64,000 nt of DNA from NCBI GenBank assembly GCA_035266085.1, contig DATFNZ010000118.1:692-64691 (forward strand), written 5' to 3'. This document shows, in pieces, positions 341 through 6,081 of this stretch (position 1 is the first letter of the stretch; each line of letters starts with the position of its first letter). Under the pieces are notes generated by a model. The model saw only the letters and a program-made list of their open reading frames with translations. It was not told the DNA's origin and searched no databases. Source of the stretch: Thermoanaerobaculia bacterium. Its GTDB lineage: Bacteria > Acidobacteriota > Thermoanaerobaculia > Multivoradales > UBA5704. The position numbers were made by a program, and so were the translations under genes.

Positions 341-734
341 ACTCCAAAGGTACAAGACAGGCGGGGCCAGCCGCTCCTGGCGCCCGCCTGATCGGATTCA
401 GTTTTCAAAGAGCCAGTACGCGGCAGCTCCAAACGAGCGCCCGCGCAAGTTCCTTCCTTACCGCGATCAGGGGGACGTTCCAGATCGGCCGGATTGCGCC
501 GGCCCCGGGGCTCCTTCCCTAGGCGGAGCTCTCGTCCCCTTCGCTACGAGAGGGCGGATGCCCCTCCGTTGCTCCGGATATGCGTTAGCTTGCCGGGTCT
601 GGCAGAAGATGTCAAGTGAGACCCCTTGACAAGAGGATGCACTTCGTGGATTCTATGCACACTTCAGCCCGCACCAATTCCGGTGCTTGCCTGGGGTCGG
701 GGCCGGGAAAAGCCCCTGAACAAGGAGAAAGACC

Positions 735-1127
735 ATGCAGAGCGAGACCACGTATTCCGGAATCCTGGGAGAGCTTCAGCGCTTCCAGGCGTCGATGGAG
801 GCCAAGATCGGCGAGATCCCCCACCTGGAGCCGAGCCGGGCTCACTTCGGCCAGATCCTGAGCCGGGCTCAGGATCTGGTCCGGCAGCAGGCGGCCGTGA
901 CGGCCGAGAAGCAGACCCTGACGCAGCAGCTCAAGGCTGCCCTCGTCGACGGCCAGCGTCTGGCGACCCTGTTGCGCAAGGGCCTCCAGCAGCACTACGG
1001 CATCCGCTCCGAGCGGCTGACCGAATTCGGGCTGCAGCCGTTCCGCGGCCGGAAGGTCAAGAGCAAGACGAAGCCGGAGACGCCCACCCCCGCGCCCAAG
1101 CCCGAGCCGGTCCCCACGGCCGGCTAG
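735..1127 (+). CDS. Hypothetical protein (130 aa), coiled-coil-like body with a Lys/Pro-rich basic tail
   Basis: ATG preceded by an AAGGAGA RBS. Normal amino-acid composition. Followed by a canonical terminator. No family recognised. Confidence 0.7.
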   Translation: MQSETTYSGILGELQRFQASMEAKIGEIPHLEPSRAHFGQILSRAQDLVRQQAAVTAEKQTLTQQLKAALVDGQRLATLLRKGLQQHYGIRSERLTEFGLQPFRGRKVKSKTKPETPTPAPKPEPVPTAG

Positions 1128-1160
1128 CGGCGACACCTAGAACCCTGCCTCGATGTTCAA

Positions 1161-1190
1161 GGGGGCGTGCCCGGCACGCCCCCTTTTCTT
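1161..1190 (+). terminator. Rho-independent terminator
   Basis: Stem gggggcgtgcc / ggcacgccccc with a 1-nt loop, followed by ttttctt, 34 nt after the stop of the 735-1127 CDS. Confidence 0.8.
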
Positions 1191-1220
1191 GTCTCCGCCT
1201 CCCGGAATGATTCCACGAGC

Positions 1221-1760
1221 GGCGCACAATTTAACGACGGAGCGTCACAAGATTAGGCGGCGCGCCGTAAGATTATGCGCCGCGTACAATTTTGCGACGG
1301 AGCGTCAGAAGATTAGGCAGGGCGTCGTAATTTTATCCGCCCCGTCGTAAGCTTCGGCGGAGCGCCGTAAGATTAGGCGGCACGCCATAAGCTTAGGACG
1401 CCGCGCACAATTTACGGCAGAGTGTCAGAAGATTAGGCAGAGCGTCATAATTTTATCCGCCGCGTCGTAAGCTTCGGCAGGGCGCCGTAAAATTAGGCGT
1501 CGCGTCGTAAGCTTATGACGCCGCGCACAATTTACGGCGGAGCGTCGGTAAATTGCACGGCGCGTCGTAAGCTTCGGCGGAGTGTCATAAAATTAGACGG
1601 CACGTCGTAAGCTTATGACGCCGCGTACAATTTACGGCGGAGCGTCGCTAAATTGGACGGCGCGTCACAATTTTATGCGCCGCGCCGTAAGCTTCGGCGG
1701 CGCTTCATAAGATTAGGCACGCCGCCGTAAGCTTATGACGCCGCGTCGTACTCTTAATCC
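1221..1760. repeat. Non-coding array of ~27 contiguous 20-bp units, consensus MGCGYCRTAA-GMTTAKGMSG, with 60- and 120-bp super-periods
   Basis: Every 20-nt register from 1221 to 1760 carries a GC-rich half and an A/T core (TAAGCTTA, TAAGATTA, CAATTTTA, TAAAATTA). No indels occur across 540 bp. Many units are 18-bp palindromes centred on AAGCTT (cgtcgtaagcttatgacg). Stops occur in all frames. Confidence 0.9.
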
Positions 1761-1866: not shown

Positions 1867-2709
1867 ATGGAAACTCGAGAGCTGGAGCGCATCCGCTTCG
1901 TCACGCGGCACTTCAACGATCTTCAGGGGCTGCGGTACGAGGTTCCCCTGGGGCTGATCGCCCTGGGCTTGGGAGGTGCGACGCTCCTCAGGGCCGCTCT
2001 GTTCCTGGGAGCATTTCTCCTGCTGCTGGGAGCGCGGCGGCATTACAGGAATAGCTTCGGCGAGGTGGAGGAAGGGCCGGCCGGTTCCGCCGCCGAGCTC
2101 TATCCCGTATCCGTCTTCGGTCCGGCCGGACCGATCCCCCGGCTCGAGGGTTTTCAGCAGGTGACGCCGTTCGTCCGGCACTTCCTGACCACCCTGGCGT
2201 TGGCCGCGGTTCTCTTCTCGTACTTCCAGGCGCTCACACCCAACTTCGTGGTCCTGGGAGACGAATCGGCGGGTCAGCATCCTCAGATCGTCACCGAAAC
2301 GTCTCCCCTGTTCAGACAAACCCCCGTCGGGCCTTTTTTCATGGGCGGGGCCGTGAGGCCGCCATCCATGCTCAGGGCCGTGCTTGCTCAGTCCCTGTAT
2401 GTCCTCTGCGGCGCGTTCTTCCTGGGGCTCTGGCTCTGGAGAGGACGCCGCGGATCCCAGGGGCATCATCTGGCGCTCTCGCTGCTGATGTTTGGGCTTG
2501 CGGCCTTCGGCACTTCCCTGGGGTTCCTCGCCTGGCGGGATGGGGAGATCCCTCGGGCCCTCGCGCCCTTCCTGCCGGCGCTCGTCTATCCCGGGGTGGC
2601 CCTGCTCCTCTGCGGCTCCTCGATGATGCTGGCGGGTCTTCTCGATCACTGGCAAATCGTCCGGGCGCTGGGATGGTCCGTGGCGGCGGAAGGGGAGGAG
2701 TCACGATGA
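1867..2709 (+). CDS. Multi-pass integral membrane protein, function unknown
   Basis: 280-aa ORF with at least 6 hydrophobic segments. Its stop overlaps the start of the downstream wHTH gene (ATGA at 2706-2709). Confidence 0.75.
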   Translation: METRELERIRFVTRHFNDLQGLRYEVPLGLIALGLGGATLLRAALFLGAFLLLLGARRHYRNSFGEVEEGPAGSAAELYPVSVFGPAGPIPRLEGFQQVTPFVRHFLTTLALAAVLFSYFQALTPNFVVLGDESAGQHPQIVTETSPLFRQTPVGPFFMGGAVRPPSMLRAVLAQSLYVLCGAFFLGLWLWRGRRGSQGHHLALSLLMFGLAAFGTSLGFLAWRDGEIPRALAPFLPALVYPGVALLLCGSSMMLAGLLDHWQIVRALGWSVAAEGEESR

Positions 2710-3053
2710 ATGCCACACCGTTCGAGCAGCTCGCGAACCTGGACCGCCGGGTCCACGACCCCGCCCGTCTGGCCATTCTGACGGCGCTCTCGGCTTGCGA
2801 GCGGGCCGACTTCCTGTTCCTGCAGCGGATCACCGGCCTCACCAAGGGCAACCTCTCCTCCCATCTCTCGAAGCTCGAGGAGGCCGGGCTGGTCGAGATC
2901 GAGAAGCGGTTCGTGGCGAAGAAGACCCAGACTCTCGTCCGCCTGAGCGGCGCCGGCCGGCGGACGGTCGAGAGCTACTGGAAGGAGATGGAGGAGCTCC
3001 GCGAGAGCGCCGCCCGATGGCGGCCGCAGAACGCCGTGCCGGTGCCGGGCTGA
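2706..3053 (+). CDS. Winged-helix (ArsR/MarR-like) transcriptional regulator
   Basis: VHDPARLAILTAL...FLFLQRITGLTKGNLSSHLSKLEEAGLVEIEK is a typical wHTH recognition-helix and wing pattern. Translationally coupled to the upstream membrane protein. Confidence 0.8.
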   Translation: MNATPFEQLANLDRRVHDPARLAILTALSACERADFLFLQRITGLTKGNLSSHLSKLEEAGLVEIEKRFVAKKTQTLVRLSGAGRRTVESYWKEMEELRESAARWRPQNAVPVPG

Positions 3054-3687: not shown

Positions 3688-4344
3688 CTACCGCCGCTGA
3701 ACGATGATGCTGCCTTCCCCCTGTGTCACGTCGACGAAGGAGTAGAAAGAGAGCGAATAAATCGTACAGCCTCTCTCTTCACTGGAAATGAGATTGACGG
3801 AAGGAATTCCCACATCGTCGTCCCGCTCCGCATCCGTTGCCCACCACCTCAGATACGCTCCGTCATCATCCCTTCGCTCGGAGTCGGAGGGTACCCATCC
3901 CCCTGGCCTTGGCTTGCAGAAACTCCAGGTCAGCTTATCCGGGACTCTCGGGTTGTCCCCGTTGTCTTCGACCACCAGTTGCACCCACCTCCCGATGTAG
4001 CTCCTGTGGGTGGAGTCCGTGACCGTCGCGCTCATCACCGCCCTGTTCTCCTCGACCCGCATGCCGTCGACGACCGCCGTCATGTGAAATTCCGGAGGTG
4101 TGTCGCCTGAACGGGGGTCTTCAGGGTCGTCGACGTCTGAAATCCTTGCCCGGTCGATGAAAGAGATCTGGCCGGTGGTGACGCCTCGCTCGTCCGTCCT
4201 GGCATCGAACTCCACGTACTTCAACACGTCGTCATCCAAGAAAAACCGGTAGGTACCGCTGGCGGCCTGGGCAGTGGCCAGCCGCGGGGTCGTGAGGCTC
4301 AGCAGAAACAATGCTGAGATCGACATCAATGTTCTGTGCTTCAT
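3688..4344 (-). CDS. Secreted hypothetical protein
   Basis: Start taken at MKHRTLMSISALFLLSLTTPRLATAQA (signal peptide). Asp-rich mature protein. No family recognised. Confidence 0.7.
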   Translation of the reverse strand: MKHRTLMSISALFLLSLTTPRLATAQAASGTYRFFLDDDVLKYVEFDARTDERGVTTGQISFIDRARISDVDDPEDPRSGDTPPEFHMTAVVDGMRVEENRAVMSATVTDSTHRSYIGRWVQLVVEDNGDNPRVPDKLTWSFCKPRPGGWVPSDSERRDDDGAYLRWWATDAERDDDVGIPSVNLISSEERGCTIYSLSFYSFVDVTQGEGSIIVQRR

Positions 4345-4440: not shown

Positions 4441-6081
4441 CTAGCCGGCGTTTTTCTCCGCGGGTTTGCGCCGGCGCAGGAAGCTCAGGCCCGCGAGACC
4501 GAAGAGGCCCGCGAAGAGGAGCTTGCCCATCTCCCCCAGGGTCGGGACTTCCGCCGGCGGCGCCGGCGGCGGGATCGGCTGATCGTCGTCCACGATGGTG
4601 AGGACGGCGGTCTGGCCATTGCTCAGGAGCAGGATCACGGTCTCGTTCCCTTCCTCCAGAAGGTCGTCCACGATGGGGACCTGGAAGGTCTTGGGCACTG
4701 TATCCCCGTCCGCCCAGTTGAGCGTTCCGGAGGCCGGCAGATAGTCGGCCGGCTGGGTGGCGGTGCCGTCGGCCGTCTGGTACATGACCGAGGCAGGGCC
4801 TTCGCTGCCGCCCGTGCGGGTGACGGTGATCGTGGCGGTCACGCCGTCCTCGTTGACCGAGTAGGCGCTCAGGCTGAACTGGAGGGTGCCTGCCGCGAGC
4901 TCGACGGCGCCGATGTCGAGGCGCCCGCCGGAGAGACGGGGGAAGCCCGGGCCCCGCTGATCGGTGCTCGGCGGCGGCGTGAACGATGAGTCGCCGGCGT
5001 TCACGGCCGGGCTGGTGAGAGCCGGCTTCTGCGTCTGGGTGGGGCCGCCGTTGTCGGCCAGGGGACCGAGTTGGGGATCCTGGTTGAGGATGGTCCCGCC
5101 GCCGTCGTTGACGGTGGCCGTGCCCGGGCTCTCGATCAGGCTGAACAGGGAGTTGAGGGTGCCGCTGCCGTCGACGTCGTTCGGGGAGCCGTCGGCCGTA
5201 TTGTCCGCGAGGATCGTGTTGTCCACACTGAGGCTGCCGTTGGAGATGAAGACGCCGCCGCCGCTGTCGGCCGAGTTCCCGGCCACCGTGGTGTGGCGGA
5301 GGGCCGGGCTGTAGGCGTAGAGGAGGAGGAGGCCGCCGCCCTGGTTGCTCGCGGTATTGCCGGAGACCGTGCTGTTGGTGAGGGTGAGCTGGCCGCTCGC
5401 GAGGGCGATGCCGGCGCCGTCGGCAGCCGAGTTGCCGGCGACCGTGCTGCCGGTGATCGCCACCGTGGCCCCGTCCGCGTTGATGCCGCCGCCGGCCTCG
5501 ACCGCCGAGTTGCCGGAGATCGTGGTGCCGGTGATCGTGACCTGGGCGCTGGCGTTGGCGGCGATGCCGCCGCCGTTGCCGGCCGCCGTGTTGCCGGTGA
5601 TCACGCAATCGGCGAGAGTCAGGTGCTCGTCCTGGTTGAAGACGCCGGCGCCGTTCATGGCGCTGCCCGCCGTCAGGGTGAGGCCCGAGATGGAGACGTC
5701 GATGAAGTCGACCCCGCCGTCGTCGACGTTGACGACCCGCGAGGCGCCGTTGCCGCTGACGGTGATCACGGCGGCTCCCGGTCCCTGGACGTCCAGGAAG
5801 TCGGTAACGGCGAGCTCGCCGGTCGTCAGGGTGATCGTGCCGGTCAGCCCGGCCTGGAAGTCGATGACGTCCGCGCCCGCGGCGGCGTTGGCGTCGAGCA
5901 CGGCCTGGCGCAGGCTGTCGGCGCCCGAATCGTTCAGGTTCCTGACCGTGAAGGTCGCGGCCTGGGCCGGCGACGCGGCCATGACGACGCCGAGCGTCAG
6001 GGCTGCCCCCGAGGCCAGGGTGGCTTGGCGGACCGCCTTCCGGCGGGCAGGGCGGTCCTGTTGCGTGTCGATGCCGGACAT
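4441..6081 (-). CDS. Secreted right-handed beta-helix repeat protein with a Calx-beta domain and an IPTL-CTERM-type sorting signal
   Basis: Twin-Arg/Ala-rich signal (RRKAV...SPAQA). Repeated GNxAxxGGGI/TxSGN beta-helix units. DNGGPTQT motif. Calx-beta-like segment (TATQPADY...VPIVDD). C-terminal VPTLGEMGKLLFAGLFGLAGLSFLRRRK. Confidence 0.85.
   Translation of the reverse strand: MSGIDTQQDRPARRKAVRQATLASGAALTLGVVMAASPAQAATFTVRNLNDSGADSLRQAVLDANAAAGADVIDFQAGLTGTITLTTGELAVTDFLDVQGPGAAVITVSGNGASRVVNVDDGGVDFIDVSISGLTLTAGSAMNGAGVFNQDEHLTLADCVITGNTAAGNGGGIAANASAQVTITGTTISGNSAVEAGGGINADGATVAITGSTVAGNSAADGAGIALASGQLTLTNSTVSGNTASNQGGGLLLLYAYSPALRHTTVAGNSADSGGGVFISNGSLSVDNTILADNTADGSPNDVDGSGTLNSLFSLIESPGTATVNDGGGTILNQDPQLGPLADNGGPTQTQKPALTSPAVNAGDSSFTPPPSTDQRGPGFPRLSGGRLDIGAVELAAGTLQFSLSAYSVNEDGVTATITVTRTGGSEGPASVMYQTADGTATQPADYLPASGTLNWADGDTVPKTFQVPIVDDLLEEGNETVILLLSNGQTAVLTIVDDDQPIPPPAPPAEVPTLGEMGKLLFAGLFGLAGLSFLRRRKPAEKNAG

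Follow-up and report, generated by a model that had tools for sequence, protein, structure and literature searches.

Small centromere-binding proteins with iterated sites, such as ParR of R1 and pSK41 with its parC, each own an array of 10-20-bp direct repeats and assemble along it into an unbroken nucleoprotein filament that is one-sided or helical. The incA locus of P1 holds nine 19-bp RepA sites, and iteron arrays of this kind, with repeats of about 19-22 bp, some two helical turns apart, beside the gene of their binder, serve as sinks or in handcuffing. In type III toxin-antitoxin loci a terminator between the repeat array and the gene sets the stoichiometry. With regard to layout, the closest analogue of the locus described here would seem to be sopC, situated behind sopB in plasmid F, where a 43-bp repeat that contains a 16-bp SopB site is present 12 times (PMC3177203). 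The present locus is a repeat array at positions 1221-1760 (forward strand) of the window, i.e. the whole stretch of 64,000 nucleotides that was analysed (C118:692-64691), which belongs to the 7.8-Mb, 239-contig assembly of a Thermoanaerobaculia bacterium (G000). Like sopC it is a long phased direct-repeat array directly downstream of a protein gene, whose product is the binder there and a putative binder here; like parC it is combined with a small protein as a private array of short repeats; and its 27 direct repeats at exactly 20 bp, a spacing of about two helical turns, lie within the 17-22-bp range of iterons. A full-text search of the literature on repeat arrays in this lineage returned no description of such arrays.

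When the segment 1201-1780 was sliced into steps of 20 nt, all 27 units fell into one head-to-tail register from 1221 onwards, with the consensus CGCGTCGTAAGATTAGGCGG, the skeleton nGCGyCryAAnnTTnnnnGG and no indel over 540 bp. Self-identity of the array amounts to 0.52-0.68 at all multiples of 20, with maxima at lags 220 (0.68) and 120 (0.67) and values of 0.61 at lag 100 and 0.59 at lag 60, compared to 0.13-0.15 at odd multiples of 10 and 0.37 at the best off-register lag. TRF reported a period of 120 (85% matches, score 462), the higher-order repeat of six units, and one of 60 (score 295). A previous reading made from the letters alone (the sequence-only reading) had described a 20-bp phased array without indels and with 60- and 120-bp periods, and this description is confirmed. 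The G+C content of the array is about 0.55, that of the genome 0.68 (68.0% G+C). Open reading frames across the array were found in no frame, and a coding repeat is ruled out by stops in all frames, by the TAA that recurs in the units and by a unit length that is not a multiple of three. The same reading was right to deny a CRISPR, which requires identical repeats of 24-48 bp with unique spacers, whereas the array consists of contiguous 20-mers free of spacers; no cas family was matched among the neighbouring ORFs scanned. It had gone too far in seeing many 18-bp palindromes centred on AAGCTT: such cores exist, but only in eight of the 27 units, the others carrying AAGATT, AATTTT, AAAATT or CAATTT, and the full 18-mer cgtcgtaagcttatgacg occurs twice, its arms with one mismatch.

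The array forms the 3' half of a module of about 1.19 kb (574-1760, forward strand; shared segment by BLAST C118:1264-2448), which comprises a presumed promoter, the gene of a 130-aa protein, a strong terminator and the array itself. To the 5' part (574-734) belong the presumed promoter region, in which TTGACA is conserved at 626-631 and in which the promoter scan made no call, and the leader of the gene. The gene (735-1127, forward strand) encodes a predominantly helical protein by prediction, with a PFRGR motif and, behind it, a tail rich in proline and basic residues, and is separated from the array by an intrinsic terminator at 1159-1192 (forward strand) with a 12-bp G+C-rich stem (1159-1185), a 3-nt loop and a T-run. 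This terminator is conserved in the full copies of the module in the same genome, and an equivalent hairpin with T-run was found in L003, L006, L011, L018, L022, L025 and L038 among the related loci treated below. Beyond the module, on the same strand, follow a promoter-like site TTGACA-17-CAGAAT (1800-1828), which belongs to the downstream operon, and the operon itself at 1867-3053, consisting of a membrane protein (1867-2709) and a winged-helix regulator (2706-3053; PF13601 HTH_34, E 3.6e-20), both of them unrelated neighbours. The terminator ahead of the array, the upstream 130-aa protein with its basic tail and the downstream pair had all been recognised from the letters and were found as described.

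A position matrix made from the 27 units was used to search the genome for further arrays, and four copies of the module in addition to that on C118 were detected, three with full arrays and one reduced to a remnant of four units. Full arrays are located at C42:32016-32575 and C182:11302-11860, both with a broken gene, and on the minus strand at C185:12875-12335 with an intact gene; the remnant on C139 (about 80870-80800) has retained the last ~40 nt of the gene. The intact genes of C118 and C185 encode proteins with 86% amino-acid identity. In C42 and C182 the gene has been disrupted by deletions and insertions, and the arrays have kept unit structure and positional homology; all four arrays are homologous in position, unit by unit, apart from a gap of a single whole unit in C118, another in C185, and differences of 1 bp in one unit type. 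C182 and C185 display a super-period of 121 bp, made of five 20-mers and one 21-mer, and the exact 20-bp register of C118 and C42 was reached via different 1-bp deletions. The perfect register claimed previously thus holds for the indel-free array of C118 but not for its paralogues in C182 and C185. Homology of the four full copies starts at CCGGATATGCGTTAGCTT (574 in the window) and ends at the last array unit, and because it stops there the winged-helix operon is not a conserved neighbour. The operon is not conserved beside the copies; the conserved partner is the upstream 130-aa gene, to which the sequence-only reading had referred only in passing. Outside the arrays about 30 isolated matrix matches were found in the genome, and as these lie within the chance bound they give no evidence for a regulon.

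Among relatives, 14 of the 36 congeneric genomes searched contain a match to the array sequence, whereas 24 genomes belonging to other families of the order gave none. At the loci L003, L007, L006, L011/L019 and L018, which came to light through their arrays, the sequence directly upstream contains, in the same orientation, a gene homologous to that of the 130-aa protein (43-50% identity) and a hairpin terminator, so that the gene precedes similar arrays in five other species and in two further gene lineages; in L007 the homologue is frameshifted and the array retained. Arrays with the motif CGYCGTAANNTT thus stand behind gene homologues in other species of the genus. Related arrays at L002, L008, L009 and L017 have no gene homologue nearby, and some arrays of relatives are almost uniform (L002, 0.96; L009, 0.9), from which recent amplification can be concluded. 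Searching with the protein instead led to metagenome orthologues with 20-bp arrays behind a terminator (L022-L024, 82% identity; L025, 73%). Altogether, 13 of 30 protein-found loci possess an array with a period of 20-22 bp, or a multiple thereof (40-42 or 83 bp), at 95-280 bp downstream of the gene, as do ten of the 12 best protein matches, compared to a chance of ~0.3% per gene by our own estimate from 85 arrays in 7.8 Mb. The unit sequence differs for each paralogue: L038, a paralogue from genome G002, is followed by 23 units of GACTCCTGAACCTTnnGnnnn and its array carries GACTCCTGAAC, and a paralogue on C41 of the present genome keeps PFRGR beside a G+C-rich 20-bp array (72% G+C). Many weaker paralogues are devoid of an array. 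The linkage of gene and array holds across species and across paralogues, and the module fits a pattern of a gene for a small helical protein, an intrinsic terminator and a private 20-21-bp array, present as several diverged modules per genome.

With a profile of 36 homologues, 20-24 copies of the gene were counted in this genome and 25 in a congener; two other genera of the family have 6-7 each. The protein family was present in four of four genomes of this bacterial family (f1) and in none of 147 other genomes of the class, and among the genomes searched it is restricted to that family. All 197 homologues of the 130-aa protein are unnamed and originate from Thermoanaerobaculia/Acidobacteria. 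A protein tree came out as a polytomy, from which no co-evolution of protein and unit can be read. No match in Pfam, PHROG or NCBIfam and no relative by PDB profile or Foldseek was obtained. The AF2 model (pLDDT 82.6) predicts helices at 7-23, 29-88 and 93-98, i.e. a helical hairpin and a long helix, followed by a disordered Pro/Lys tail; no ribbon-helix-helix (RHH) or helix-turn-helix (HTH) family was matched. Ahead of the tail lies the conserved motif HYGIRSEKLTEFGLQPFRGRK, in which P102, F103 and R104 never vary and at least 90% of the homologues have G105 and R106. Matches below threshold were noted to Pfam Histone_HNS_N in five of the 36 members (best E 0.024) and to a WWC1 helical hairpin in seven of the 36. 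The idea that the RGR motif reads the A/T cores of the units was weakened by the C41 paralogue with its 72% G+C array; the RGR segment cannot explain specificity, because it is common to paralogues with differing arrays, this G+C-rich one among them.

The period is not a property of this module only. TRF detected 138 tandem loci of 120 bp or more in the genome, and in 85 of them the period is 20 (15 loci), 21 (56) or 40-42 (14). These ~85 arrays fall into many unrelated unit families, and most of them are without an adjacent gene of the protein family. In samples of 400 kb, arrays of the 20/21/42-bp type numbered five in the congener and three in another genus of family f1, as opposed to one (probably coding) and none in two genomes of other families without the protein; the comparison comprises four such samples, and the p of ~0.02 for eight versus one is our own binomial estimate. 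Phased A/T patches, and with them DNA curvature, were considered as a feature common to all 20-21-bp arrays and rejected: in 73 unit consensuses A/T bases were unclustered (1% at p <= 0.05), and because they are not clustered the common factor of the arrays is not curvature but only the period.

Conservation within the unit is uneven. Stacked units of related arrays have nnCGyCGTAAnnTT in common, and C3, G4, C6, A9, A10, T13 and T14 were kept at 77-100% in arrays beside proteins 43-100% identical as well as in dispersed arrays, a comparison that is biased towards agreement and partly circular, since the matrix was derived from this window and the loci were partly picked by array similarity. 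Among the four copies in this genome identity reaches 0.82-0.94 at unit positions 2-4, 6, 9, 10, 13, 14, 19 and 20, with 0.83-0.94 at the seven bases just named, and 0.55-0.58 at positions 5 and 7. Divergence of the array and of four-fold sites in the adjacent gene was compared five times (0.258/0.283, 0.107/0.104, 0.142/0.132, 0.066/0.029 and 0.150/0.085, respectively), four-fold sites in a genome of 68% G+C not being a clean neutral yardstick. On the whole the array has diverged at about the rate of these sites or faster, so most of each unit is free to drift, and the constrained bases per unit are a few at most. Indels between copies or strains comprise whole 20-bp units or single bases, with 20-bp gaps between C118/C42/C185, L022/L023 and L006/L011/L018. 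This pattern hints at a kept phase, yet slippage gives the same pattern. The sequence-only reading had argued for selection on spacing and against slippage. For the former, the indels of whole units or 1 bp, the separate 1-bp deletions leading to the 20-bp register and the ~85 arrays with a period of 20-21 bp or a multiple are hints; the latter was half right, as whole units have been gained and lost and the arrays of L002 and L009 are freshly amplified.

Against this background the differences from the described systems can be stated. Unlike sopC-SopB, the present locus has neither a ParA/SopA NTPase nor a recognised ParB fold, counts 27 units with a period of 20 instead of 43 bp and is chromosomal, with five copies that represent one of ~20 paralogous modules and with a terminator that splits gene and array. 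ParR is a ribbon-helix-helix protein whose array lies at its own promoter and which works with ParM, whereas here an all-helical coiled coil is predicted, the array stands behind a terminator and a motor gene is missing; the module consists of gene and array only, with no ParA, ParM or TubZ NTPase as a partner. Iteron control arrays differ in that origin, Rep initiator and plasmid are absent here, units are far more numerous and drift at a rate near that of four-fold sites. Membership in the partition and iteron families consequently fails on defining features, since an NTPase partner and a plasmid are lacking and the protein matched none of the RHH, HTH, ParB and Rep folds, and membership in the REP/BIME, CRISPR and ToxI classes fails too. 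REP/BIME elements are likewise abundant, lineage-specific extragenic repeats, often 3' of genes, but REPs are hairpin palindromes whose orientation alternates and which come with a RAYT transposase, whereas the units here are arranged head-to-tail, show no mirror covariation and have a period fixed at 20-21 bp. ToxI loci of type III likewise combine a tandem short-repeat array with a protein gene, the two being split by a terminator; their arrays, however, lie upstream of a ToxN/AbiQ-type endoribonuclease and contain two to six units of 34-36 nt, whereas here 27 units of 20 nt lie downstream of the gene and no ToxN/AbiQ-like protein was found. As for H-NS/Lsr2, a likeness would concern protein architecture only (~130 aa, an N-terminal coiled-coil region for multimerisation and a C-terminal minor-groove motif of the Q/RGR type), to which the A/T cores of this array in a 68% G+C genome may be added. 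A folded C-terminal DNA-binding domain is not predicted here, however, the Pfam matches stay below threshold, G+C-rich arrays occur behind paralogues that share the RGR, and H-NS has no dedicated tandem array.

The array is most likely a row of putative protein docking sites, two DNA turns apart, for the coiled-coil/RGR protein of the module, a reading which is drawn from sequence comparison and which we favour tentatively, at somewhat less than an even chance. The array would act as double-stranded DNA, because a period of 20-21 bp, i.e. two turns of B-DNA, across unrelated units is natural for DNA and meaningless for RNA. Each unit would offer one short site (CGYCGTAANNTT) per two turns on the same face of the helix, and a multimerising protein could load side by side and give rise to a long one-sided nucleoprotein track. 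The protein loaded would most probably be the module's own coiled-coil/RGR product, and the intact genes of C118 and C185 would supply it in trans to the copies C42 and C182, whose own gene is lost. As candidate roles of such a track, a protein sink, a barrier or insulator, and the bridging of dispersed copies may be named. The long helix, which in the model appears suited to multimerisation, the near-invariant RGR beside a basic tail and the weak matches to the N-terminal part of H-NS would favour a docking protein. In favour of the track itself count the arrays kept beside broken genes, the linkage of array and gene, their co-distribution, the common period, the conserved unit positions and the lack of mirror covariation. 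Points against it are that the protein has no recognised DNA-binding fold, that its RGR segment cannot account for specificity, that most of each unit drifts, and that many weaker paralogues and most of the ~85 arrays stand without their counterpart. Of the protein-loading platform for a dimeric HTH protein proposed before, the platform is still the best reading, and the HTH partner is not supported, homology stopping at the array end.

If a docking track is indeed present, small proteins without a recognised DNA-binding fold would assemble on long phased chromosomal arrays without a partition motor, in ~20 diverged versions per cell, which would amount to a new level at which a major soil lineage, as yet uncultured, organises or regulates its chromosome and might supply orthogonal protein-array tags for DNA labelling. 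A still wider proposal would join the ~20 mutually distinct protein-array pairs per genome, an NTPase-independent reading of DNA, the private two-turn tracks and the gene-less copies into one chromosomal addressing or bridging system, comparable, in bacteria, to satellite DNA and proteins dedicated to binding it; we regard this combination as rather unlikely.

Also rather unlikely, and first among the alternatives, is a neutral or selfish minisatellite, which would be functionless and arise by unit-length slippage and unequal exchange, its 20-21-bp period being set by the mutational mechanism. Its location would follow if gene and array had been duplicated together or if the terminator hairpin promoted slippage. 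The array shows what defines minisatellites (VNTRs), namely head-to-tail units and whole-unit change of copy number between copies or strains, and this account stays alive because most positions drift at nearly the rate of four-fold sites and changes of whole units are frequent. The near-uniform arrays of some relatives and the many arrays without a neighbouring family gene also agree with it, as does the long-range self-complementarity of both strands, which favours misalignment. Unconstrained repeats should, however, have decayed or vanished behind paralogues only 30-50% identical, where the array persists, and the account is further opposed by the one period class common to unrelated units, by the ~12-nt motif repeated behind gene lineages only 43% identical, by conservation that depends strongly on the position within the unit and by the co-distribution of the arrays with the protein family. 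It is from this persistence, with period and ~12-nt motif kept, that selection for a phased array is argued. Were the arrays neutral nonetheless, the question would arise of what holds the units of dozens of bacterial minisatellites, unrelated in sequence, to a length of two helical turns.

An element acting at the RNA level is distinctly less probable. Read-through or an unrecognised promoter would have to produce a transcript of 27 units, and these would either capture the Arg-rich protein, in a ribonucleoprotein or as a sponge, or be cut into RNAs of ~20 nt. Order and orientation of gene, terminator and array are fixed as would suit this explanation, the terminator between gene and array parallels type III toxin-antitoxin loci, and an arginine-rich motif for RNA binding might be seen in PFRGRK and the basic tail. 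A 12-bp G+C-rich terminator nevertheless stands ahead of each array, and from the terminator to the array no promoter-like site was found, the only match within the array scoring 9/12. Covariation at mirror positions round the core centre did not exceed column shuffles in 158 units of nine arrays, and Watson-Crick pairing at these positions gave z values from -3.0 to +3.6, near 0 at most positions; neither did covariation round the spacer centre exceed shuffles at 82 junctions between neighbouring units. A hairpin or cruciform element was therefore rejected, mirror covariation lacking at core and spacer centres alike. Compared to shuffles the array folds with z of -7.4 and -9.0 for the two strands by long-range pairing between units, to which both strands are prone because the unit core is partly palindromic. 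Since the two strands fold equally well and no Rfam family was recovered (a single miRNA match at chance level, E 0.59), a strand-specific RNA structure was rejected as well. An asymmetry of G-U versus A-C between strands was not observed in the units, and a period of 20-21 across unrelated units, natural for DNA as it is in the docking-site reading, is not so for RNA.

Very unlikely is an operator or upstream regulatory array of the membrane-protein/winged-helix operon, bound by the winged-helix protein at 2706-3053: this protein does have a confident DNA-binding domain and the array ends ~40 bp before the good promoter-like site at 1800-1828, but the operon is absent downstream of the other four copies and of all related arrays. 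Scarcely credible, finally, is a centromere or iteron set left behind by a plasmid or prophage or still at work in one, the literal form of the layout analogy drawn in the sequence-only reading, for although tandem direct repeats of ~20 bp, two turns apart and beside a small gene, are reminiscent of iterons, parC and sopC, no match was found in 72,556 plasmids, the protein gave a single marginal match in the phage collection (E 7e-4), ParB_N or ParA (AAA_31) genes are absent from the array-bearing contigs C118, C42, C182 and C185 (parAB pairs lie on C126 and C202), no Rep-like match appeared among six neighbouring ORFs scanned, and five dispersed copies per 7.8-Mb genome together with about 20 paralogous modules speak for a multi-copy chromosomal element.

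At the edges of the module neither terminal inverted repeats nor target duplications were seen; its left edge carries a motif resembling an array unit, ATGCGTTAGCTTGCCGG, at 580-596.

Arrays with units of this length form a widespread class in the Thermoanaerobaculia genome: about 85 non-homologous tandem arrays with a period of 20, 21 or 40-42 bp were found genome-wide (with units such as CCGGAACGAGnGGCTCGCCGG, CGCCGGACCTTAAAGTTGGTC, CCCCTCGCGAGGGGAATGACG and CGCGAGGGCGCAACGAAAATT), and among its tandem repeats that reach 120 bp or more, such arrays are the majority.

Orthologues of the 130-aa protein gene on four metagenome contigs (L022-L025) are adjoined divergently by argR (Arg_repressor Pfam), and in two loci of other species of the genus, L003 and L007, the ARG-box-like palindrome TGAATACCGGTATTCA lies ahead of the promoter; these features hint that ArgR controls some members of the gene family. 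At the extreme left edge of the module in the window, about 30 bp upstream of TTGACA, ATGCGTTAGCTTGCCGG (580-596) resembles a single array unit. It was not seen upstream of the gene homologues in other species; as it is conserved in all four module copies of the genome, it is a candidate operator.

Among the relatives, L007 (contig C9 of genome G009, about 1064600-1064930) retains an intact array of 23 units despite a frameshift in its small gene. In L022 a long inverted repeat, CCCTCACCCCCGGCCCCTCTCCC...GGGAGAGGGGCCGGGGGTGAGGG (3905-4038), follows the array of the orthologue, and contigs stop at this repeat, which suggests a further, assembly-breaking repeat.

An element of roughly 100 bp, in which CTCTTTGAAAACTGAATC..GATC precedes a G+C hairpin and a T-run, was also observed, with about 12 copies in the Thermoanaerobaculia genome. 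Copies are located in the window (357-454, minus strand), at C143:18987-19085, C145:36459-36556 and C108:40998-41064, and at the end of the G+C-rich array on C41; the element immediately follows either further paralogues of the small gene or the arrays of these paralogues. In shape, a single-stranded seed plus a terminator, it resembles a small RNA gene.

At the left end of the window (about 1-249; C118:616-940) a pair of inverted repeats of about 90 bp is present, of which the genome holds at least 25 copies; the arm at 192-238 scored 32.1 bits as Acido-Lenti-1 RNA, below the gathering score of 37. Further downstream, a gene on the minus strand (4441-6081), which contains internal DNA repeats of 78 bp at 5357-5597, encodes a secreted-looking protein of 546 aa that combines NosD-like beta-helix repeats with a Calx-beta domain.
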